From contig RFHM01000475.1 of the NCBI GenBank assembly GCA_003696865.1, positions 1 to 34,542 on the forward strand: 34,542 nucleotides of DNA, read 5' to 3'. The notes under the pieces are model-generated. The model worked only from the letters and a program-made list of their open reading frames with translations, ran no database searches and had not been told where the DNA came from. This DNA comes from Acidobacteriota bacterium. GTDB lineage: Bacteria; Acidobacteriota; Blastocatellia; HR10; J050. Of this stretch, positions 1 through 17,375 are shown one piece after another. The position numbers were made by a program, and so were the translations under genes. Positions within the stretch are counted from its first letter, which is position 1; each line of letters begins with the position of its first letter.

Positions 1-1120
1 CCTCCAATGTGGTCAACAGCATGTCGCGGCCGATCTCACTGGGAGCATAATAGAGCAGCAATTGGATCCAGAATAGCTGAAACCCGGCCGCGACCAGCCC
101 GACCAGCGCTGCCGTGAGCATGCCCAGTCGCAATCGCAGCATGGGCATCCGACTGGCTTGCTTCAGGTCGCGGAGGAGCACGGCCCTGAGGGAGATCGGA
201 ACCAGACGAAGGAGGCGATCTACTACTGGACCGCCATCGATTCGAGCTGACAACCGGGATTGGTGGCGAGGTTGGACTCCTCCCATCCACTGATCTGGTC
301 GCGCCATCACTTCCATGTCGTGACGTGTGAGGTGCGCCCACATACGTGCGGCGAGCCACAACAGCATCCCCGTCAAAAGAGCCAGTCCTCCACCCAACCA
401 AAGGCTTTCAGCCGTTCCCTTCACAATACCTTCGTTGAGTCGCGAAAGAATCCAAAGAGGGATGAGGAACAGAGTCGCCCATGCTCGATCATCAGTGACT
501 CTGAGTCCCCTCAACAGCGATGACCAGCGGGCAATTAGCACTGCGCCGCCGGACAGTAGCAAGAGGGACATCCCTATCAAAGCGACTTCTCGACGAGCAG
601 GGGGGATGATCCTCCCCCAGAGCAGCCCCGCCAGAATCCCACAGGATGCGGCTAAGCTTGCTCCTGACAGAGCAGCCAACAACATGGCCACACTCCACAG
701 CACCAATCGCGATGCCGCCCACCCGCCAGGAGGATTGACACTCCATACTCCCCAACCGGCAGTGATTGCCCATACCCCCATCACTAAGGCGAGGCGAAGG
801 GAACGGATCATGACCTCCGCCAGACGGACGGCGGCCAGATCAGCGAGGCGAACGGGCAAACTCAGGAGAAATTCTTCCTCAGTTCGAGCATCACCGAGGA
901 GCAACGTCAGTGTCGAGGTTAAAGCCCCGAGCAGTGAGACGAAAACGATCATCAGGATAGTGATATCCCCGCCTAACTTCAGGAGGCGATCGGGTTCTTC
1001 GGTAGCAAGAAACAGAGCGCTCTTCCGACCCGCTACGTAGACTACGCCCAGGACGAGCAGCATACCTCCCCCACCAACTGCTCTGGCCGTTGAGGACCGA
1101 GCCTGGGCCCGCCGCCGCAT
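1..1120 (-). CDS. Polytopic membrane protein, C-terminal end cut by the window edge; probable membrane partner of the adjacent C39-ABC ATPase
   Basis: Absent from the ORF track because it runs off the window. Hand translation of the minus strand from ATG 1120-1118 gives MRRRAQARSSTARAVGGGGMLLVLGVVYVAG... and ends ...YYAPSEIGRDMLLTTLE at position 2. I checked every tca/tta/cta triplet in 1-1120 and none falls in this frame. Several hydrophobic stretches are present (ITILMIVFVSLLGALTSTLTLLL, LVLWSVAMLLAALSGASLAASCGILAGLLW, LIGMSLLLLSGGAVLI, GLALLTGMLLWLAA, LGMLTAALVGLVAAGF). It starts 22 nt after the ATPase stop. An alternative start is ATG 1063, preceded by GGGGGAGG. Family not recognised. Confidence 0.6.
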   Translation of the reverse strand, partial: MRRRAQARSSTARAVGGGGMLLVLGVVYVAGRKSALFLATEEPDRLLKLGGDITILMIVFVSLLGALTSTLTLLLGDARTEEEFLLSLPVRLADLAAVRLAEVMIRSLRLALVMGVWAITAGWGVWSVNPPGGWAASRLVLWSVAMLLAALSGASLAASCGILAGLLWGRIIPPARREVALIGMSLLLLSGGAVLIARWSSLLRGLRVTDDRAWATLFLIPLWILSRLNEGIVKGTAESLWLGGGLALLTGMLLWLAARMWAHLTRHDMEVMARPDQWMGGVQPRHQSRLSARIDGGPVVDRLLRLVPISLRAVLLRDLKQASRMPMLRLRLGMLTAALVGLVAAGFQLFWIQLLLYYAPSEIGRDMLLTTLE

Positions 1121-1142
1121 ACGAAGGAGAGTCCGCACTGTC

Positions 1143-2615
1143 TTATTCATCATCTTTGGCCATATCGGGTTCGGGGATTCCCTCGGCCTGCGGGTCGGTG
1201 AGCTTGAGAAAGAGATCTTCCAAGCTGGCCTGGGGATGCCCGACGAGTTCTCTCAACTCGGCCAATGTCCCCACGAACAATAACGTACCTTGGTCGAGGA
1301 TGCCGACACGATCGGCGATCCGCTCGGCAATCTCCAGAACATGTGTGGTCATGAGCACAGTATGCCCACGGTCGCGCAGAACGCGTAGCTGGTCTTTCAC
1401 CAGACGTGCCGATCGAGGATCCAAACCCTGCGTCGGTTCATCCAGGAGCAGGAGCGATGGCTCGTGCAGTTGAGCGGCAATGAAGGCGATCTTCCGGCGC
1501 ATACCATGAGAGAGAGCGCCAATGCGCGTATCCATCTTATCACCCAAAGCCATCGTCTGGAGAGCATCAATGATGCGCTCTTCCAGCTGCTTCTGGTCGT
1601 CCAGCCCATAAAGTTGTCCCACGAAGAGCAAATATTCCCGGGGAGTCAGGCGCTCATAAAGGAACAGACGCTCGGGCATATAGCCGATCGAACGGCGCGA
1701 CAGCAGACGCTCGGCTTCCGAGGCGGCCCACAGATCAATTCCATGGAGGATGATCTGGCCCGAACTCGGTGGGAGAATGCCCGTCATCATTTTCACCAGC
1801 GTCGTCTTCCCAGCTCCATTAGGCCCCAGCAAACAGAAGACCTCGCCAGCATGCAACTGGAGACTCACCTGCCGCACAGCCCAAACCCGCCGTTGATAGA
1901 CACGCGACACGCGCTTCAAAATGACTGGTGGAGAAGAGGCCACGGGAGCCACCGGCGGCAACGTCTCCTTCTCCACAGAAATATCGCTCATGCTATCCGG
2001 CGAAGAGGCTGCCTCTCCATTCACTGGGCCCGGGGTTTCTCGCCCTCCCTCAGCATGGGCTCGCGAGGAAAACGGGCTTCCAACCAGAAGCGCGAATCCA
2101 TCCCACAGCCGTTGAAATCGCTGATGACTGAGTTCGATCAATCCCAGCAGAGGATCACGTACACGCACTTTGTGAGGAGTGGCCTCATCGATTACAACCC
2201 AATGCCGGTATGGCGGCACTGGCATCCCCAGCCTCCCCAGAAGGAACCGACCGAGGCGGACCCAAAGCTGATAGGGAAAGAGCCGTTCGCTCTCCAGGAT
2301 GATCACGGCTTTTAACCGCGAGGGGGTCCGACACAGAGGGACTAAATCGGCCGGTGCGTCCAGACGGAGCCCGCGCGTTTTCAACCCGTACTGCTCGAAC
2401 CACTGCGCCATATCCAGCATGCTCATCGCCCCAGACCTGAACCGATGGTTTGCCGCCTCTCCATCGTCCAACAAATTATAGTCCCTTAACACCATTTGCA
2501 CACAGGCTTGGCCGCACGAGTTGAGATTCGGCTGAAAAGTCACCCGGTCATCGGAGATGTATCGGAGACCATTCAGAAGGCAGAGAAGTTGTCGGATCAC
2601 TCGCATCTGTCCCAT
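1143..2615 (-). CDS. C39-type papain-like peptidase domain fused to an ABC nucleotide-binding domain, with no transmembrane domain
   Basis: From ORF 1143..2861. The first ~82 codons are R/W/S-rich and overlap the better-looking ORF 2707..2961, so I placed the start at ATG 2615 (or 2606). No good SD precedes either, so the start is uncertain. N-terminal C39 hallmarks: VTFQPNLNSCGQACVQMVLRDY (Gln plus catalytic Cys) and YRHWVVIDEATPHKVRVRDPLLG (His, Asp). A Pro/Ser-rich linker (ETPGPVNGEAASSPDS...LPPVAPVASSPP) follows. NBD motifs: Walker A LLGPNGAGKTT, signature-like LSHGMRRK, Walker B LLLLDEPTQGLD, H-loop MTTH. No hydrophobic TM segments. Confidence 0.85.
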   Translation of the reverse strand: MGQMRVIRQLLCLLNGLRYISDDRVTFQPNLNSCGQACVQMVLRDYNLLDDGEAANHRFRSGAMSMLDMAQWFEQYGLKTRGLRLDAPADLVPLCRTPSRLKAVIILESERLFPYQLWVRLGRFLLGRLGMPVPPYRHWVVIDEATPHKVRVRDPLLGLIELSHQRFQRLWDGFALLVGSPFSSRAHAEGGRETPGPVNGEAASSPDSMSDISVEKETLPPVAPVASSPPVILKRVSRVYQRRVWAVRQVSLQLHAGEVFCLLGPNGAGKTTLVKMMTGILPPSSGQIILHGIDLWAASEAERLLSRRSIGYMPERLFLYERLTPREYLLFVGQLYGLDDQKQLEERIIDALQTMALGDKMDTRIGALSHGMRRKIAFIAAQLHEPSLLLLDEPTQGLDPRSARLVKDQLRVLRDRGHTVLMTTHVLEIAERIADRVGILDQGTLLFVGTLAELRELVGHPQASLEDLFLKLTDPQAEGIPEPDMAKDDE

Positions 2616-2706
2616 GAGTAGACATAGGGAGATCAGGGGGATGAGTTCCCCAGGCGCCCTCCAACATCCCGAAGTTCTCCACGGAGCATACAACCTGTCT
2701 CTCGTA

Positions 2707-2961
2707 TCAGCCCGGTGGAGAATCCCCCGTCGGAATGGGGATGATGGTGACGCTTTTGATGTAGTCCAACGGACACCACACCGAGAACCCGCTCTTAGAG
2801 TCTGTCTCCACCAACAGGCCCCGTCGATGGTTGATGTCGAGGATGTTACGAGCAATTCCACAGAAGCTCAATTCGCCACGGCACCGGAGGACGATCCGGT
2901 GGCCGAGATATTTCTTTGCATTTCCGCTATGCAGTGAGCCATCGTCTGGTGTCACGTTCAT
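2707..2961 (-). CDS. Hypothetical 84-aa protein, operon member, family not recognised
   Basis: From ORF 2707..2982. I chose ATG 2961 because it forms an ATGA start/stop overlap with the PqqD-like gene (stop 2958-2960) and is preceded by GGGAGGA with a 9-nt spacer. Sequence: MNVTPDDGSLHSGNAKKYLGHRIVLRCRGELSFCGIARNILDINHRRGLLVETDSKSGFSVWCPLDYIKSVTIIPIPTGDSPPG. Composition is protein-like, unlike the overlapping frame. Confidence 0.55.
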   Translation of the reverse strand: MNVTPDDGSLHSGNAKKYLGHRIVLRCRGELSFCGIARNILDINHRRGLLVETDSKSGFSVWCPLDYIKSVTIIPIPTGDSPPG

Positions 2962-3233
2962 CGAGATTGTTCCTCCCGCCAAAGGAAATTCCTGGTAGTG
3001 ATCAATCCCACTGCCTCGAGCCTCGCCAACAAACGCTGTGTCTCAGACTCATCGATTCCCGCCTTCGACATCTGATGGATCAACTCCGTTACCGTGTACT
3101 CTTCGGCATCGATTAATACCCACAAGCGAGCCAGAGGTCCAGTGAGAAGTATCTCTCTTCGAGGCTCCGGTTGAATGACCCGGATATACCCCGACTCCTG
3201 CAACCAGAAAGTATTCCTAAGGTCTCGGAACAT
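2958..3233 (-). CDS. Stand-alone PqqD-family protein (RiPP recognition element, RRE)
   Basis: 91 aa. GYIRVIQPEPRREILLTGPLARLWVLIDAEEYTVTELIHQMSKAGIDESETQRLLARLEAVGLI follows the PqqD pattern: beta-strand segment, L-x-x-x-a-a-x-iW-x-l-iD, 't-v-x-e-l', then a helix ending '..L...GLI'. ATG at 3231-3233. Its first ~40 codons overlap the 3' end of the SPASM gene in another frame. Confidence 0.8.
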   Translation of the reverse strand: MFRDLRNTFWLQESGYIRVIQPEPRREILLTGPLARLWVLIDAEEYTVTELIHQMSKAGIDESETQRLLARLEAVGLITTRNFLWREEQSR

Positions 3234-4744
3234 CCTTCGGCAATAGCATGATTGTCCCTCCGGCCTAATCCTTTGTCGATCGCTCGGGCCAGCTTCTCAT
3301 CATCCGGACGAGAGACGTATTGGAGAAACTCTTCGTAGCAGTCGAGCATCACCGGACAGAATGGATCTCGCTCCGAGAGCCCGTTGGCCGTCGCGCGACA
3401 TCCGCCGCCACAGAAGTAGCGGTATATGCACTGTTGACAGATGGGATCGCCATCCACGGAGAAGACGGATCGATTCCAGACGCGGCCAGCAGCCCGAAGC
3501 TGTTCCAGCGATTGTTCGGGGAACTCCCCCAGCTGACATCCCTCCCGGTCAGTAAGAGCGGCACAGGGATAGCTCTTCCCTTGAGGATCGAAACTCAACA
3601 TGGTAATGCCCGCCCCACAATTGTCACGGTGAAGGTTTCGAGTGAGATTGGTCGCGTAGTTGAATGAAGCATCGAGGTACAGAGGCCGATATCGCATTCC
3701 GCGCGCGTCTTTTCGATCGGAGAGAATATTCACATAGAGACGTCGGAAATTAATGATTGCTTGGCGGAGGAAATCTGGTTTGAGGAATCCCGCCCTTTCC
3801 AGTCGTTCGTGTTGCGCAGGATGAGCCGGAGGTTTGGGATGGTTGAGATGAATGTAATCTGCCCCCAGATGATACCCTAATTTATTGAGCTCGGGAATCT
3901 GATCCACGTTGTCCGGCGTCGGCGTGAACGCCAGACCTCGAGTCACTCTCGCTCTGGTATCGTACAATCTCTTGAACACGCGAACGACGCGCGCAAACGC
4001 TCCCTTCCCCCGGATAGCATCATGCGTGGCAGCATCAATCCCGTCAATTGAGATTTGCAGATCATCGATCATCTCCACGAGATGGTCAAACACATTCTCC
4101 CCGGGCATAGTCCCATTTGAGATGACCTTGATGTGAAAGGGAGCCGTGTGGCGACATAACCGGACGAGGTCGAGGATCTGAGAGTGAAGCATGGGTTCGC
4201 CCCCAGAAAGGACAATCTGCCTGACGCCCAATCGCGCTGCTTGATCGAAGAGTTGGCGCGCCACGTCGAGAGGGAGTTCTCGCCCGGGGCGTTCCACAGG
4301 ATAATAACAGTGAGCACAACGGAGGTTGCACGTTGAAGTCACGTGTATCCAGAGTTGGAAGAGTTTCAGCTCCTCCAGCCTTCGAGGTCGCGAAGGAGAA
4401 CCAACCGCGGCCAATGGACTCTCCGATTCCTGATCAGAACCAGCAGACGCCTCACTCTCTCTCTCGACCTCCGCATAGCCTTGGCTGATGAGAACATCGA
4501 GAAACTGGAGGATCGACGGCCGCACGGCCTCGGCAGGCAATCCGTATCGGGCGACGGCCTTCGATACGATCTGCTCGGTGGTCAACGAACGCTCGCCAAG
4601 CAGGGCGAATATCCACGCTCCGACCTCTGATGTCCGTATCCAATCCGGGACTTCGGGACGCAGTAGAACGGCCGATCCATTTTCAAAGATTTTCACCACA
4701 GGATCACTCACACGACGAATTGATCCGGTGGGATCTCCGTTCAT
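3113..4744 (-). CDS. Radical SAM / SPASM-domain peptide maturase with an N-terminal PqqD-like (RRE) domain
   Basis: 543 aa. N-terminus: VVKIFENGSAVLLRPEVPDWIRTSEVGAWIFALLGERSLTTEQIVSKAVARYGLPAEAVRPSILQFLDVLISQGY (PqqD-like). Radical SAM cluster motif CNLRCAHC (CX3CX2C) and SAM-binding VLSGGEPMLH. Full SPASM signature: CGAGITMLSFDPQGKSYPC (CX12GX4C), CQQCIYRYFCGGGC (CX2CX5CX3C), and downstream FCPVMLDC. Strong SD (AGGAGGT) 5-6 nt before ATG 4744. ATGA overlap with the upstream gene. Confidence 0.9.
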   Translation of the reverse strand: MNGDPTGSIRRVSDPVVKIFENGSAVLLRPEVPDWIRTSEVGAWIFALLGERSLTTEQIVSKAVARYGLPAEAVRPSILQFLDVLISQGYAEVERESEASAGSDQESESPLAAVGSPSRPRRLEELKLFQLWIHVTSTCNLRCAHCYYPVERPGRELPLDVARQLFDQAARLGVRQIVLSGGEPMLHSQILDLVRLCRHTAPFHIKVISNGTMPGENVFDHLVEMIDDLQISIDGIDAATHDAIRGKGAFARVVRVFKRLYDTRARVTRGLAFTPTPDNVDQIPELNKLGYHLGADYIHLNHPKPPAHPAQHERLERAGFLKPDFLRQAIINFRRLYVNILSDRKDARGMRYRPLYLDASFNYATNLTRNLHRDNCGAGITMLSFDPQGKSYPCAALTDREGCQLGEFPEQSLEQLRAAGRVWNRSVFSVDGDPICQQCIYRYFCGGGCRATANGLSERDPFCPVMLDCYEEFLQYVSRPDDEKLARAIDKGLGRRDNHAIAEGCSETLGILSGCRSRGISGSFNRSLEERYFSLDLWLACGY

Positions 4745-6186
4745 TGGACACCTCCTTTGCTCAACTTGACTTGAGCATTCTCGTCGGCTTCGATCTCAGC
4801 AATGAGCCTATCGAGCTTGGCACGAAACTGTTCATGCCTTTGCCCGGTCAGGCCAACCATTTGTTTCCCTCGCCGACTTTCATGCTCAAGGAAATACAAG
4901 GCCCGTCTGAGATCATTCTTAGTGAACCGTTGAGTGTCATAGACCGGGGTCACCAAATCGTACTTTCGCCAATTTCGCGTCGTGATGGTGATACCCAACT
5001 TCTCAGCGTCTTCGAAGAGCCGCGTTCCCGGAAATGGCGTTGATATACCGATGGCTGCCGTCCCAATGCCGTGATCACGAATCGCCTGAGCAAAGAGGAT
5101 CGTCTTCTCGATCGTAGCACGTGTGTCCGCATGATGGCCAATGATGAAGGAACAGTCCACACGCAAGCCATGACGTCGCGCAACCCGGATGGCCTCAAAC
5201 GTCTGCTCCAACCGAATATGTTTGGCAATCGCATCGAGGACACCCTGATCAGCACTTTCCACTCCGATGTGGATGGATAGACAACCAGCACGGGACATGA
5301 GAGCACAGATTTCATCACTCACTCGATCCACGCGACTTTTACATGCCCAACGAGGCGGCTCGCTGCCCGGCCACGCTGTGAGGAGATAATGACAGAACGC
5401 CTCGGCCCGCTTTCGATGAACGGTGAACGTATCATCAAGGAAGACCATGCGATTGAATCCATAGCGCCGAAAATATTCGTAAGCGAGTGAAAAGACCCAC
5501 TCGGCGGAATGAAATCGATATCGCTTCCCGGACATGGCCCGTGAAGCACAGAAAACACAATCACCGGGGCAACCCGGACTGGAGACGAACATGAAACTCT
5601 CCTTATAGGACTCTTGGAGTGCAGGCACCGACTCGTAACTTGGGAAAGGAAGGAGATCGAGGTTCGTGACAAATGGACGCGTGGGATTGGAGCGTACAGC
5701 GCCATTGACATCCCGATAGGCGAGCGACTGAATGCGCTCCACAGGCAATCCTTGCGGATGCTGCAGATGTTCCAAGAGTTCGACCATCGCCGACTCGCCC
5801 TCATGACGGATGACGAAATCAATGCAATCATAAGATAGCACCTCATCGGGCCGGAAGGTGGCATGGGGGCCACCAGCAACAATACAGGTCTCAGGGAAAA
5901 GTTCACGGACAAGAGCGGCAACCTCTATACCTTCATAGAAACACTCCGTGTAAAGAGAAATGCCCACCGCCAACGGACTCCGAGACAAAGTCGCCAACCG
6001 ACGCCGGAAATCCTGTCGGGAATGATCTTCAATCATCATATCCACGACGTGCACGGTGTACCCGTGGAGCTTCAAAAATGCGGCAATATGGAGGAGTCCT
6101 ACCGGCGGATAGGGATACTTCTCCTTGAACATCTCGCGCATCGCCGATGAACTTGCTGGCTCAATGAGCATCACATCCCGATTCAT
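4741..6186 (-). CDS. B12-binding-domain radical SAM enzyme (class B radical SAM, methyltransferase-like)
   Basis: 481 aa. The N-terminal Rossmann-type cobalamin-binding region (VMLIEPASS...YPYPPVGLLHIAAFLKLHGYTVHVVD...AVGISLYT) is followed by the radical SAM motif SSPGCPGDCVFCAS (CX3CX2C). SD GAGGGA lies 5 nt before ATG 6186. Confidence 0.85.
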   Translation of the reverse strand: MNRDVMLIEPASSSAMREMFKEKYPYPPVGLLHIAAFLKLHGYTVHVVDMMIEDHSRQDFRRRLATLSRSPLAVGISLYTECFYEGIEVAALVRELFPETCIVAGGPHATFRPDEVLSYDCIDFVIRHEGESAMVELLEHLQHPQGLPVERIQSLAYRDVNGAVRSNPTRPFVTNLDLLPFPSYESVPALQESYKESFMFVSSPGCPGDCVFCASRAMSGKRYRFHSAEWVFSLAYEYFRRYGFNRMVFLDDTFTVHRKRAEAFCHYLLTAWPGSEPPRWACKSRVDRVSDEICALMSRAGCLSIHIGVESADQGVLDAIAKHIRLEQTFEAIRVARRHGLRVDCSFIIGHHADTRATIEKTILFAQAIRDHGIGTAAIGISTPFPGTRLFEDAEKLGITITTRNWRKYDLVTPVYDTQRFTKNDLRRALYFLEHESRRGKQMVGLTGQRHEQFRAKLDRLIAEIEADENAQVKLSKGGVQ

Positions 6187-6299
6187 ATGCTTCCCTCACT
6201 CATTGGGAGGAGTGCAGGACACACCCCTCCCCTTACTTCAGCTTTTAACAACAGTACGTACAGAACGGCTATGCCGGAAGAGGTGATCAGTCCCATCAT
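6183..6299 (-). CDS. Possible 38-aa micro-ORF between the precursor and the B12-rSAM gene (small hydrophobic peptide)
   Basis: Below the ORF-track length cutoff, so hand-translated codon by codon: MMGLITSSGIAVLYVLLLKAEVRGGVCPALLPMSEGSI*. Its TGA (6183-6185) overlaps the ATG (6184-6186) of the B12-rSAM gene as ATGA, the same junction type used elsewhere in this operon. There is no convincing SD. It starts 25 nt after the precursor stop. It could be fortuitous. Confidence 0.3.
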   Translation of the reverse strand: MMGLITSSGIAVLYVLLLKAEVRGGVCPALLPMSEGSI

Positions 6300-6324
6300 T
6301 TGAAGCTGACCGAGATACTCCGCA

Positions 6325-6513
6325 TCACGGTGAACCAGGAACAGCATCATCATCTATGATGTCTACAACGGCGATCACCACAGCTCCAAAGGCGCTTCCG
6401 CACTCAATCACTGCAGCAACGAAAGCCGGCACGGCCCCACCAGAAATGCCTGCCATCTCTGCTTCACTCAACTCAGTTGATGTAATCGGTGTCGGATCAA
6501 TGAAGAGATTCAT
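6325..6513 (-). CDS. RiPP precursor peptide with a double-glycine leader (62 aa)
   Basis: From ORF 6325..6519. The track's first codon is TTG. I prefer ATG 6513, which sits 7 nt downstream of GAGGAGGT (6521-6528). Leader: MNLFIDPTPITSTELSEAEMAGISGG, which matches the double-glycine consensus (hydrophobic at -4 I, -7 M and -12 L; Glu at -8; GG at -2/-1). Core: AVPAFVAAVIECGSAFGAVVIAVVDIIDDDAVPGSP. It is the first gene of an operon that also encodes a C39 peptidase, two radical SAM enzymes and RRE domains. Confidence 0.8.
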   Translation of the reverse strand: MNLFIDPTPITSTELSEAEMAGISGGAVPAFVAAVIECGSAFGAVVIAVVDIIDDDAVPGSP

Positions 6514-6550
6514 CACCAATACCTCCTCAGGAAACTCTCACTCCTCAATG

Positions 6551-6580
6551 GAGCGGCAAACTCAAAAGAATTTGCCGCTC
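6551..6580. promoter_or_regulatory. Perfect 10-bp inverted repeat with a 10-nt spacer, 38 nt upstream of the precursor start codon (operator or 5'-UTR hairpin)
   Basis: GAGCGGCAAA (6551-6560), ctcaaaagaa, TTTGCCGCTC (6571-6580). A second palindrome, ATGCAA-T-TTGCAT, lies at 6588-6600 and shares the TTTGC core. No U-tract follows on the minus-strand transcript, so it is not a classic terminator for that strand. Confidence 0.4.
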
Positions 6581-7507
6581 TGTCTTAATGCAATTTGCAT
6601 ACCGTGGAGAGAGTCGAAGGACCAGATTGGCAACTCGCTCATGAACGGAATGTTACATGGCACATGCGGAACCCGCATCAGTATGGCTCCTGGAGTCACT
6701 GGCCATATATCGTCACCAAAGAGGTTGATTATCCCCCGAAGGAACTCACCAGCTCATTGATCCACAATAAGTTACGTTATTGGCGACGTATCACCAGTAA
6801 GTGACTGAATATCGCCAGAAGCGACAGTGGAAGAGAAGCAAGCAGGAAAGTTCAACACTTCTCACACAAATACGCTCTCCCAATCCTGCAGAATTCTTTT
6901 CCTCCCCTCCCCCTCCTCACCCCGCTCCTCCGGGCAGGAATGCCCATCTGCTTCACACGCCTTCCGAGAACATCTTGACCAACCTTACCAGGATTTGATC
7001 ATCCTCTATGAGCATAACCAGCAAAGAGCATCGCTGACACAGACGCCGGTTCCCCGCAGCCCTGGCGATACCATGCCCATCGCTGGGAGCAAGTGCACGC
7101 TCATGAGCGCCCCCCGTCGTTGTTCATCGTGATCACCTCACCGGTTGGCACGCCTCAGGCTCAAACCATGTGACCCTTTGCTATTGAGCTTCTGTGAAGC
7201 GAACGAATGAATGATCAAGCTTTCCGACCATCCGTGTGGAAGGGCGGGAACCTGTGGAGAAACTCCCGCGGGAGTAGCTTGCACTTGGCGGCCATGTGGA
7301 TCTTCTTGGACCGTGCCGGATTGGTATGAAGGCTCGTCCTTTCCGTTCGGCGAAGTACAGCAACAGCCTGGAGCAATACACGGACTTTCCTTTCGCGACA
7401 AGAAGATGGCTCACAATGGGATTTCCCGCACATTTCAATCATCGTAGCCGACCTTCGTCCTTTTGCTCGTCCACCTTGTCATCGCGCCTTCCCTCTGCGT
7501 ATGATCA

Positions 7508-8443
7508 ATGTTTGCCGTTATGATGGGACGGATTTTCGTTCGACGGCTGGTGCTCGTCCTGCCGGTCATCTGGGCGGTGGTGACGCTCGTCTTCCTCCTC
7601 ATCCATATGGTACCCGGCGATCCCGTGCTCACCTATCTCGGCGAACGGGCTACGCCCGAACAAGTGGCCGAGATGCGCCACCGCTTCGGCCTGGATCGTC
7701 CCCTGTGGGAACAGTACATACACTACTGGCAACAGCTTCTCAAAGGGGATCTGGGGATCACTTTCTTCGATCGGCGCCCGGTCACGGAGAAGATTCTCGG
7801 ACGCTATCCGGCGACGATGGAGCTGGCGCTGGCTGCCCTCGTCGTCGCCATCTCCTTCTCCATTCCTCTGGGTGTGACCGCGGCCACACATCAAGGGAAG
7901 TTCGCCGATAGTATCGCATCCGTGGTCGCTCTGGTCGGCATCTCTCTCCCCAATTTCGCGCTGGGCCCGCTGATGATCCTCCTGTTCGCCGTGAAGCTGC
8001 GCTGGCTGCCCGCCTCGGGCATCGGTGGGCTCAATCACCTCGTCTTACCGGCGATCACCCTGGGCGCGGCGCTGGCCGCCATCCTCACGCGCATGGTCCG
8101 CTCCAGCGTCATCGAAGAACTCCGACAGGAATACGTCAAGACGGCTCGCGCCAAAGGACTCACCGAGCGCATCGTCATTTACAAGCACGTGCTCAAGAAT
8201 GGACTCATCCCGGTGGTGACCATCGTCGGACTCCAGTTCGGCGTGCTGTTGGGCGGAGCGATCATCACCGAACGCATCTTCAACTGGCCGGGCATCGGCA
8301 CGCTGACGATCGAGGCTATTTATGCGCGGGACTACCCTCTCGTCCAGGGGTGCATTCTGGTCATCGCGCTCACCTACGTCCTGGTCAATACGGCCACCGA
8401 TGTGGTCTACCGTCTGCTCGATCCGAGGATCAAGGTGGAATGA
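7508..8443 (+). CDS. ABC transporter permease, oligopeptide/dipeptide (DppB/OppB) family
   Basis: 311 aa. RIFVRRLVLVLPVIWAVVTLVFLLIHMVPGDPV...RFGLDRPLWEQY is a typical DppB/OppB N-terminus. The EAA-like region is VKTARAKGLTERIVIYKHVLKNGLIP. The start could instead be ATG 7520 or 7523. Confidence 0.85.
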   Translation: MFAVMMGRIFVRRLVLVLPVIWAVVTLVFLLIHMVPGDPVLTYLGERATPEQVAEMRHRFGLDRPLWEQYIHYWQQLLKGDLGITFFDRRPVTEKILGRYPATMELALAALVVAISFSIPLGVTAATHQGKFADSIASVVALVGISLPNFALGPLMILLFAVKLRWLPASGIGGLNHLVLPAITLGAALAAILTRMVRSSVIEELRQEYVKTARAKGLTERIVIYKHVLKNGLIPVVTIVGLQFGVLLGGAIITERIFNWPGIGTLTIEAIYARDYPLVQGCILVIALTYVLVNTATDVVYRLLDPRIKVE

Positions 8444-14952: not shown

Positions 14953-15029
14953 TGGTGGGCCCTGTAGGACTCGAACCTACAACCCGCTGATTATGAGTCA
15001 GCTGCTCTCACCGATTGAGCTAAGGGCCC
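14953..15029 (-). tRNA. tRNA with CAU anticodon, more likely tRNA-Ile2 (lysidine type) than elongator tRNA-Met
   Basis: Minus-strand sequence GGGCCCTTAGCTCAATCGGTGAGAGCAGCTGACTCATAATCAGCGGGTTGTAGGTTCGAGTCCTACAGGGCCCACCA folds as a cloverleaf. Acceptor stem GGGCCCT/AGGGCCC, D arm GCTC/GAGC, anticodon stem GCTGA/TCAGC with loop CTCATAA, T arm GTAGG-TTCGAGT-CCTAC, encoded CCA. It lacks the three G-C pairs of an initiator anticodon stem. C4-G69 and C5-G68 match the TilS determinants as I remember them. Confidence 0.9.
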
Positions 15030-15418: not shown

Positions 15419-15703
15419 TCAACGAGCTTGGTCGCGCCCTTTCACGTGTACTTCATCCACAATCCCCACAATGGTGCAATCCGATGGCACGACATCAGGA
15501 AGGAAGGGATAACTCGCCTCGCGACCTCGACACCAGAAGACGATCTCTCCAGCACCCGCACCAACCGAATCGACGGCGATCATCGGTTTACCCATGGACC
15601 GGCCGTCCAAGGTGATCGGCTGAATGCATAGGAGCTTGCGCCCGACCAGCGAGTCGTTCTTCGCCGTGGCTACAACCCTTCCAATGACTCGTGCCAATCG
15701 CAT
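15419..15703 (-). CDS. EutN/CcmL-family bacterial microcompartment vertex (BMC-P) protein, second paralog
   Basis: 94 aa: [34 protein letters not shown]...[19 protein letters not shown]...[13 protein letters not shown]. Confidence 0.8.
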
Positions 15704-15770
15704 ACCAGGGCAAGTGTATCACACGATTGCAAATGTGTCAGCGATTGAGTACATTTGTTCCTCCCGAACT

Positions 15771-17375
<1,605 letters not shown>

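Follow-up and report, generated by a model that had tools for sequence, protein, structure and literature searches.

What does a short peptide gene followed by two radical S-adenosylmethionine (SAM) enzymes, two very small proteins, a C39 peptidase, and a large membrane protein produce, and does the combination belong to any class already named? The question is raised by a tight row of co-directional open reading frames (ORFs) on the minus strand at positions 1 to 6513 of the window, the whole 34,542-nucleotide stretch of contig RFHM01000475.1 (assembly GCA_003696865.1) that was analyzed. The host is an uncultured, soil-type Acidobacteriota bacterium related to Blastocatellia, and the window's seryl-tRNA synthetase was 74 to 81% identical to proteins from metagenome-assembled genomes (MAGs) of the Acidobacteriota/Blastocatellia. 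We are confident that the row is an operon, complete in appearance, for a ribosomally made peptide of the post-translationally modified kind (RiPP) that is modified and exported. Judged by curated libraries, and with literature precedent possible, it fits no named RiPP class. The parts named in an earlier note on this DNA (a double-glycine leader precursor, a cobalamin [B12]-binding radical SAM enzyme, a radical SAM-SPASM enzyme carrying a RiPP recognition element [RRE], a C39 peptidase with a nucleotide-binding domain, and a membrane protein) were all present by ORF layout and Pfam domains. The features, in order of transcription and with lengths in amino acids (aa), are as follows.

6522-6528, minus strand: Shine-Dalgarno sequence GAGGAGG, 8 nucleotides (nt) 5' of the precursor ATG, read from the sequence
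6325-6513, minus strand: precursor peptide gene, 62 aa, ATG at 6513
6205-6231, minus strand: GC-rich hairpin of 11 bp (GGGGAGGGGUG...CACUCCUCCC) in the spacer between the precursor and B12 genes
4741-6186, minus strand: B12-binding radical SAM enzyme, 481 aa, from Pfam
3113-4744, minus strand: RRE(PqqD)-radical SAM-SPASM enzyme, 543 aa, from Pfam
2958-3233, minus strand: stand-alone PqqD-like protein, 91 aa, from Pfam matches of family members
2707-2961, minus strand: Sm/SH3-like protein, 84 aa from ATG, from a predicted structure
1143-2693, minus strand: fusion of C39 peptidase and DrrA-type ATP-binding cassette (ABC) ATPase, 516 aa, probable TTG start; the open frame reaches 2861
1-1120, minus strand: membrane protein, N-terminal 373 aa, ATG at 1120, cut by the window end

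A conserved precursor beside a conserved gene set

The same gene set, together with a homologous precursor, was found at about 10 independent metagenomic or MAG loci (L001 to L004, L006, L007, L009, L010, L013, L014, and L096). Every contig long enough encoded 1 to 3 precursors, the B12 and SPASM enzymes, the RRE-like and Sm-like proteins, the C39 peptidase, the ABC ATPase, and a large membrane protein. This set was retained in L009 and L014, where gene order was shuffled. The earlier note had set as a test, beforehand, whether the short ORF is conserved next to these enzymes in related genomes, and homologous precursors indeed adjoined the enzymes in L001, L004 (two copies), L007, L009, L010, L013 (three copies), L014, and L096. 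Where it could be computed, the ratio of nonsynonymous to synonymous substitution was ~0.1 to 0.2, with 0.08 to 0.34 of nonsynonymous sites and 0.5 to 0.87 of synonymous sites (saturated) differing between close relatives. Because this ratio is low, the small ORF is, on substitution pattern, a real and constrained gene under purifying selection.

A precursor alignment (A6) showed F4, P7, G26, and A27 to be invariant, and D6, P9, C38, and G43 were present in at least 90%. The 11 distinct precursors that could be aligned share an N-terminal F-[IV]-D-P-x-P-[IV] motif, then a spacer, then a G-G, A-G, or V-G site followed by the invariant Ala. Their cores are rich in Val, Ile, Ala, and Thr, with one Cys followed by G/A-x-x-[FL]-G in 10 of the 11. 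In the window, a 26-aa leader (MNLFIDPTPITSTELSEAEMAGISGG) precedes the core AVPAFVAAVIECGSAFGAVVIAVVDIIDDDAVPGSP, which has the C terminus ...VPGSP. The leader ends in the double-glycine type sequence ...EMAGISGG/A, with Ile at −4, Met at −7, Glu at −8, and Leu at −12. Hydrophobic residues at −4, −7, and −12 with Glu at −8 constitute the classical double-glycine pattern of C39 substrates. None of the precursors reached the cutoff of any precursor model in NCBIfam (release 20, June 2026), NHLP/Nif11 models gave no match to nine precursors at an E value of ≤0.1, and a metagenome scan for close precursor relatives found none.

Several junctions in the operon are consistent with translational coupling. 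ATGA start/stop overlaps join the B12 and SPASM genes (4741 to 4744) and the 91-aa and 84-aa genes (2958 to 2961). A third ATGA counted by the earlier note as a junction (6183 to 6186) links the B12 gene to a micro-ORF only, not to a firm gene. That micro-ORF (38/56 aa, 6183 to 6353), which had been listed as a possible gene, is probably spurious: the corresponding spacers of L001, L004, and L007 held no counterpart, with all frames interrupted, and it had no similarity to the precursor. The strong Shine-Dalgarno sequence described ahead of the 62-aa ORF was borne out, as were the 22-nt gap between the C39-ABC and membrane protein genes (1121 to 1142) and the longer overlap, of 121 nt, between the SPASM and 91-aa genes (3113 to 3233). 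In homologues this overlap is only 7 to 47 nt. The difference is explained by ~35 extra C-terminal residues in the window's SPASM protein that are absent from all homologues, where an ancestral stop codon has apparently been lost. The gap ahead of the C39 gene, reported as ~90 nt, is probably only 13 nt long, with translation beginning at the in-frame TTG at 2693, a start that was preferred because the resulting 516 aa fits the 504 to 512 aa of homologues. The hairpin at 6205 to 6231 may, with low confidence, act as an attenuator or as a site of mRNA processing and so set the ratio of precursor to enzyme; the whole spacer did not fold significantly better than shuffled sequences (z-score, −1.2).

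Modifying enzymes, small companions, and predicted export proteins

The operon is very rare. When 5.8 billion protein clusters were searched with the SPASM enzyme, only nine matched at E values of <1e-60 (29 to 63% identity), followed by generic SPASM enzymes; four further MAGs (candidate division KSB1, Firmicutes UBA5509, Acidobacteriota, and an unclassified bacterium) came from a scan of 185,579 species genomes. No operon protein reached the cutoff of any NCBIfam family, and three had no Pfam family. The SPASM enzyme itself combines a PqqD domain at residues 25 to 89 (9.6e-9) with Radical_SAM (2e-24) and Fer4_12 matches. Its CX3CX2C motif (C139/C143/C146) and seven SPASM-pattern cysteines were invariant in an alignment of 10 sequences. 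The best NCBIfam match was StsB (NF045574) at 125 bits versus a cutoff of 625, with PapB at 77 versus 340 bits and the SCIFF maturase at 66 versus 425 bits, and no other sactisynthase model reached its cutoff. Among solved structures, CteB (5wgg) was the best relative at 8.8e-32; YydG matched at 7e-11 over the shared radical SAM core only.

The B12 enzyme has class B radical SAM architecture, in which an N-terminal B12-binding domain (Pfam B12-binding, 2.6e-19) precedes the radical SAM core (Radical_SAM, 3.8e-21), and it has no RRE of its own. It was 37 to 74% identical to its counterparts in the operons of related loci. ApyD was its best NCBIfam match (167 bits versus a cutoff of 750), and BchE and HpnJ scored 155 and 153 bits, all far below family cutoffs. 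The closest solved relatives were 9ccb, AprD4, OxsB, TokK, and CysS.

Two small proteins were assigned to the B12 step because the B12 enzyme lacks an RRE and because their genes flank the B12 gene in the looser relatives L016, L028, L029, and L097. In those four loci the PqqD-like gene is the immediate upstream neighbor of the B12 gene, and in the same four, as well as L009 and L014, the 84-aa gene lies directly downstream. The earlier assignment of the 91-aa ORF to PqqD holds through its family, in which 4 of 8 aligned members matched PqqD (best, 4.9e-5), but not through the window protein itself, which had no Pfam match. This protein is presumed from these relatives to be a free RRE-like protein that binds the leader on behalf of the B12 enzyme.

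The 84-aa protein, overlooked by the earlier note, is the most family-specific element of the operon. Its gene was present in all related operons, and the protein had no match in Pfam, NCBIfam, or a PDB profile search. An AlphaFold model built from a 5-sequence alignment (predicted local distance difference test score, 81.5) comprised one helix followed by a five-stranded barrel, for which Foldseek placed Sm/LSm/Tudor-type barrels nearest at E values of ≥0.011, a nonsignificant likeness at the level of the fold only. The protein is a predicted Sm/SH3-like barrel and accompanies the B12 enzyme. A profile search found 53 representatives in 1.84 billion proteins, a few of them spurious; a long, PASTA-like multirepeat protein (P0117) was rejected as a low-complexity match. 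A metagenome scan for the protein yielded only four short, uninformative contigs. The fold also recurs as four tandem repeats in a 384-aa protein (P0153; …GDVYIIQTDSFGRCAIWAP…), which suggests that the 84-aa protein binds as an SH3-like module and is not an enzyme.

The C39-ABC protein matched Peptidase_C39 (5.8e-12) and ABC_tran (1.6e-29) in Pfam and contained no ABC_membrane or other transmembrane domain. C39 residues Q110, C116, H220, and D236 were invariant, and the ATPase half matched TIGR01188 (drrA) at 215 bits. The exporter described earlier from a C39 peptidase and a nucleotide-binding domain therefore has both of those parts, but it is not the canonical arrangement in which a transmembrane domain lies between them. 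In L009 and in L007, as in the lineage that L007 forms with L008, the peptidase and ATPase are separate genes. The membrane protein, which was 35 to 37% identical to the product of the last operon gene in L001, L004, and L006, has homologues of ~550 aa with ~10 to 12 helices predicted by hydropathy scan, and it is presumed to be the permease partner of the ATPase.

A proposed pathway and its rivals

These parts can be arranged into a pathway that we hold, as a complete chain, to be slightly better than an even proposition. The F-[IV]-D-P-x-P-[IV] leader motif would dock two RRE/PqqD-like domains, one fused to the SPASM enzyme and one the free 91-aa protein; this motif is the likely docking site because a C39 peptidase has no need of it. 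The free RRE would serve the RRE-less B12 enzyme, which together with the 84-aa Sm-like protein would methylate unactivated sp3 carbons of the Val/Ile/Ala-rich core. The SPASM enzyme would then bond the sulfur of C38, within C-G-x-x-[FL]-G, to a carbon of a nearby residue to close one thioether ring. The C39 domain would cleave past the GG of ...EMAGISGG/A, and export would fall to the DrrA-type ATPase and ~12-helix membrane protein, which might also protect the producer. A membrane-active, bacteriocin-like hydrophobic peptide is the most likely product.

The individual steps carry different weights. C-methylation by the B12 enzyme is moderately favored and is the default prediction, since to our knowledge all B12-radical SAM enzymes characterized on ribosomal peptides (PoyB/C, the bottromycin methyltransferases, TmoD, ApyD, and Mmp10) are C-methyltransferases. 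A Cys thioether as the SPASM product, read from enzyme similarity and precursor sequence, falls a little short of an even chance; a single ring is the most economical proposal because the closest SPASM relatives form thioethers and the core conserves no polar feature other than Cys. Looser relatives of the module, moreover, adjoin multi-Cys precursors.

Several observations weigh against this pathway. All of the chemistry is inferred, and the product itself is predicted. One lineage (L007/L008; 10 contigs; L007:2348-2503) has a Cys-less precursor core, AVPAILLAVGVSVAVSVVISIVIA, and its SPASM enzyme nevertheless keeps all cluster ligands. B12-radical SAM enzymes also catalyze nonmethylating reactions, with BchE, HpnJ, and AprD4 scoring near ApyD, and apart from a general richness in Val, Ile, Thr, and Ala, the family shares no conserved target residue for the B12 enzyme. 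The membrane protein had no Pfam or PDB match and no recognizable transporter domain.

Because the L007/L008 lineage combines a Cys-less precursor with an intact SPASM enzyme, the SPASM reaction may not need Cys at all. YydG, one of the solved structures related to the radical SAM core, is a radical SAM epimerase that carries out L-to-D epimerization in epipeptides. TvgB is a SPASM enzyme that bonds the gamma carbons of Val or Ile to each other, giving cyclopropylglycine on TVGG repeats (PMC9062424). The window's SPASM enzyme could likewise act on beta-branched residues, by Val/Ile epimerization or by cyclopropylglycine formation, with the conserved Cys serving another purpose. Epimerization combined with B12-dependent methylation would yield a miniature polytheonamide-like membrane peptide, D/L patterned and C-methylated, made by nonproteusin enzymes. 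Such chemistry would suit cores dominated by Val, Ile, Thr, Ala, and Gly, and the single TVGT motifs in the L010, L013, and L014 precursors and AVGG in L009, found at only those loci, resemble the TVGG target of TvgB (PMC9062424). However, the window core contains no TVG-type repeat, Cys occurs in 10 of the 11 precursors at fixed spacing to Gly, the top-scoring relatives of the enzyme form thioethers, and the YydG match covers only the shared core. On balance, a Cys-independent reaction is an unlikely alternative to the thioether, if one with real content. Cyclopropane formation by the B12 enzyme was also considered and dropped, TvgB being a SPASM enzyme (PMC9062424).

Doubt about the B12 step takes a different form. 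The enzyme might catalyze a rearrangement, cyclization, or dehydration-type reaction, as BchE, HpnJ, OxsB, and AprD4 do, with the Sm-like protein perhaps serving as a chaperone for the substrate. The near-equal scores of BchE, HpnJ, and ApyD, all far below cutoff, and the presence of AprD4 and OxsB among the closest solved structures fit this possibility, and we know of no obligatory 84-aa partner among characterized peptide C-methyltransferases. Against this, the methyltransferases TokK and CysS are also among the solved relatives, and the record of methylation by RiPP enzymes noted above makes a nonmethylating reaction quite improbable. The most radical departure from the proposed pathway is that the peptide is an unmodified class II-type double-glycine bacteriocin or signaling peptide, with radical SAM genes that act elsewhere and are adjacent by accident. 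The leader is indeed a textbook double-glycine one, the core looks like that of hydrophobic class IIb bacteriocins of the GxxxG type, and two scores against the GG-leader bacteriocin model TIGR03949 (18.3 and 14.8 bits) lay below its cutoff of 21.5. Yet the whole set has been co-retained while SPASM identity fell from 63 to 29%, across phyla and even with shuffled order in L009 and L014, the genes are translationally coupled, the SPASM enzyme has an RRE fused to it, and the leader bears a conserved extra motif at its N terminus that C39 processing would not call for. An unmodified peptide is thus very hard to credit.

Known systems, the wider family, and the genomic setting

Features common to RiPP clusters in general were found here: the precursor is conserved beside the enzymes, and a leader-recognition PqqD domain is fused to the SPASM enzyme. 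Its unusual features are the pairing of B12 and SPASM enzymes on a short peptide with a GG leader, an accessory protein of the Sm-like type, a C39-ATPase fusion that lacks a membrane domain, and a permease that fits no classification. The earlier inability to place the cluster in a named class was upheld, in that no protein reached a curated NCBIfam maturase cutoff (sactipeptide, ranthipeptide/SCIFF, proteusin-type, ApyD, or mycofactocin), and cutoffs were also unreached for PQQ, dynobactin, WgkB, and NHLP/Nif11-associated families.

Sactipeptides and ranthipeptides (StsB, CteB, PapB, and SkfB) come close in design, with a maturase in which an RRE at the N terminus is followed by a radical SAM core and a seven-Cys SPASM domain, a conserved precursor Cys, and a leader removed by a dedicated protease/transporter. 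The window's maturase nevertheless scores far below the StsB, PapB, and SCIFF cutoffs, its peptide family has one Cys (none in one lineage) in an extremely hydrophobic core, and its operon has an obligatory B12-radical SAM enzyme, two small accessories, and a C39-ATPase that lacks a transmembrane domain. For ranthipeptides/SCIFF in particular, a Cys-rich precursor is expected, whereas the window core has a single Cys. Proteusins of the polytheonamide/landornamide type would share the predicted B12-radical SAM C-methylation and a second radical SAM step on a Val/Ile-rich, presumably membrane-acting peptide. In contrast to them, the window has a short double-glycine leader instead of an NHLP/Nif11 leader and an RRE-SPASM enzyme in place of a non-SPASM epimerase like PoyD, and the model for NHLP-associated B12 methyltransferases (TIGR03975) gave 69 bits versus a cutoff of 282.

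Poly-cyclopropylglycine peptides (TvgA/TvgB) offer a parallel, in that their radical SAM-SPASM enzyme acts on Val beside Gly in a small hydrophobic peptide and several members of the present family carry TVGT or AVGG, but the tvg cluster has an iron/2-oxoglutarate enzyme and no B12 enzyme (PMC9062424), and the window core lacks T-V-G-G or T-I-G-S-V-S repeats, TvgB having been compared by description only. ApyD, of the aminopyruvatide pathway, is the curated family with which the B12 enzyme scores best. This peptide C-methyltransferase requires an RRE, has it fused, methylates Tyr C-beta, and is encoded in a cluster with a cytochrome P450 and an MNIO enzyme (PMC10635010; PMC11002830). The window enzyme stays at 167 bits against the cutoff of 750, and the P450 and MNIO partners and the target residues are missing from the operon. 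Daptides are defined by an invariant C-terminal Thr and by aminotransferase, alcohol dehydrogenase, and methyltransferase genes (PMC11002830); the window precursor ends in ...VPGSP, and its operon has none of the three genes.

For export, the nearest known design is that of the peptidase-containing ABC transporters (PCATs) of class II bacteriocins and lanthipeptides, with which the window shares the C39 catalytic Gln/Cys/His/Asp, a GG leader with the −4/−7/−8/−12 pattern, and a predicted coupling of cleavage to export. It differs in that the C39 domain is fused to a DrrA/ABC-2-type ATPase without ABC_membrane, with the peptidase separate in L007 and L009, and in that the membrane component is a separate ~550-aa protein of no known family. 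By analogy, the cluster would work like a sactipeptide/ranthipeptide system with proteusin-like methylation and PCAT-like processing added, yet it falls outside each of these families by their defining features.

Looser relatives include a sister family in Clostridia (L016:6874-15051; L029:3029-12267; L097:358-7695), with members in Vallitalea maricola, in Petralouisia muris (isolated from mouse gut), and on a metagenome contig. It retains a core of free RRE, B12-radical SAM enzyme, Sm-like protein, and RRE-SPASM enzyme. Its precursors differ, being Cys-rich with a hydrophobic Gly/Val/Ala-rich tail and an invariant C-terminal Thr, and its clusters add a CPBP protease, a pyridoxal phosphate-dependent aminotransferase, and a second large radical SAM enzyme, with a methyltransferase in L029. 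The C-terminal Thr, aminotransferase, and methyltransferase together recall the tail chemistry of daptides (PMC11002830), and the sister family may be a hybrid class. In Alkaliphilus hydrothermalis DSM 25890 (L028:7090-16726), a larger module, in which the B12-radical SAM and SPASM genes are each present twice beside a single Sm-like gene and whose different precursor has two Cys (…ADLCGVNCDWGFGLG…), adjoins an AgrB-like membrane protein and a histidine kinase, and quorum sensing may control it. SPASM relatives at a greater distance (28% identity; L098:3543-13967 and L099) belong to a different cluster, without a B12 enzyme, where a YcaO protein is accompanied by a methyltransferase, a CPBP protease, a free RRE-like protein, a LytTR two-component system, and a canonical ABC_membrane exporter.

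Within its own contig the operon stands apart. Its G+C content was 0.51 to 0.565, compared to 0.58 to 0.62 in the rest of the window (7500 to 34542), where neighboring genes are housekeeping genes, and no flanking synteny was found between the window and L001, L004, or L006. The low G+C content and the flanks without synteny suggest a horizontally acquired accessory cluster. The gene-poor ~1 kb 5' of the operon (6520 to 7500) had a G+C content of 0.507. In region 6514 to 7520, tblastx and blastn comparison with the upstream regions of L001, L007, L010, L013, and L014 found nothing conserved, and there was no Rfam family and no convincing promoter or terminator. Elsewhere in the window are a tRNA gene (14956 to 15029, minus strand) and a cobalamin-dependent methylmalonyl-CoA mutase (15624 to 17375, plus strand); the latter indicates that the organism uses cobalamin, consistent with an active B12-radical SAM enzyme.

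Genome mining for RiPPs regularly uncovers unassigned families assembled from these same parts, and no concept is overturned here: familiar RiPP parts appear in a new combination, in a very rare family that is unnamed in curated databases. A bolder reading, which we regard as speculative and on present evidence improbable, is that the free RRE, B12-radical SAM enzyme, Sm/SH3-like protein, and RRE-SPASM enzyme form an unrecognized peptide-modifying machine with at least one step new to RiPPs, defining a class of hypermodified membrane peptides that extends from Acidobacteriota to gut Clostridia. Candidates for the novel step are a Cys-independent SPASM reaction on Val/Ile and a B12-radical SAM reaction dependent on the Sm-like partner. 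The family is compact, at seven genes, which suits heterologous expression, and cultured members of the Clostridia (Petralouisia muris, Lachnotalea glycerini, Vallitalea maricola, and Alkaliphilus hydrothermalis) carry looser relatives of the core module. If the proposed pathway is true, the family would contribute a new radical SAM RiPP scaffold, a very hydrophobic, C-methylated, singly cross-linked peptide, along with a new accessory protein in the Sm-like partner of the B12-radical SAM enzyme and a new way of arranging export, with C39 fused to an ABC-2-type ATPase. A SPASM step independent of Cys would instead represent new enzymology.

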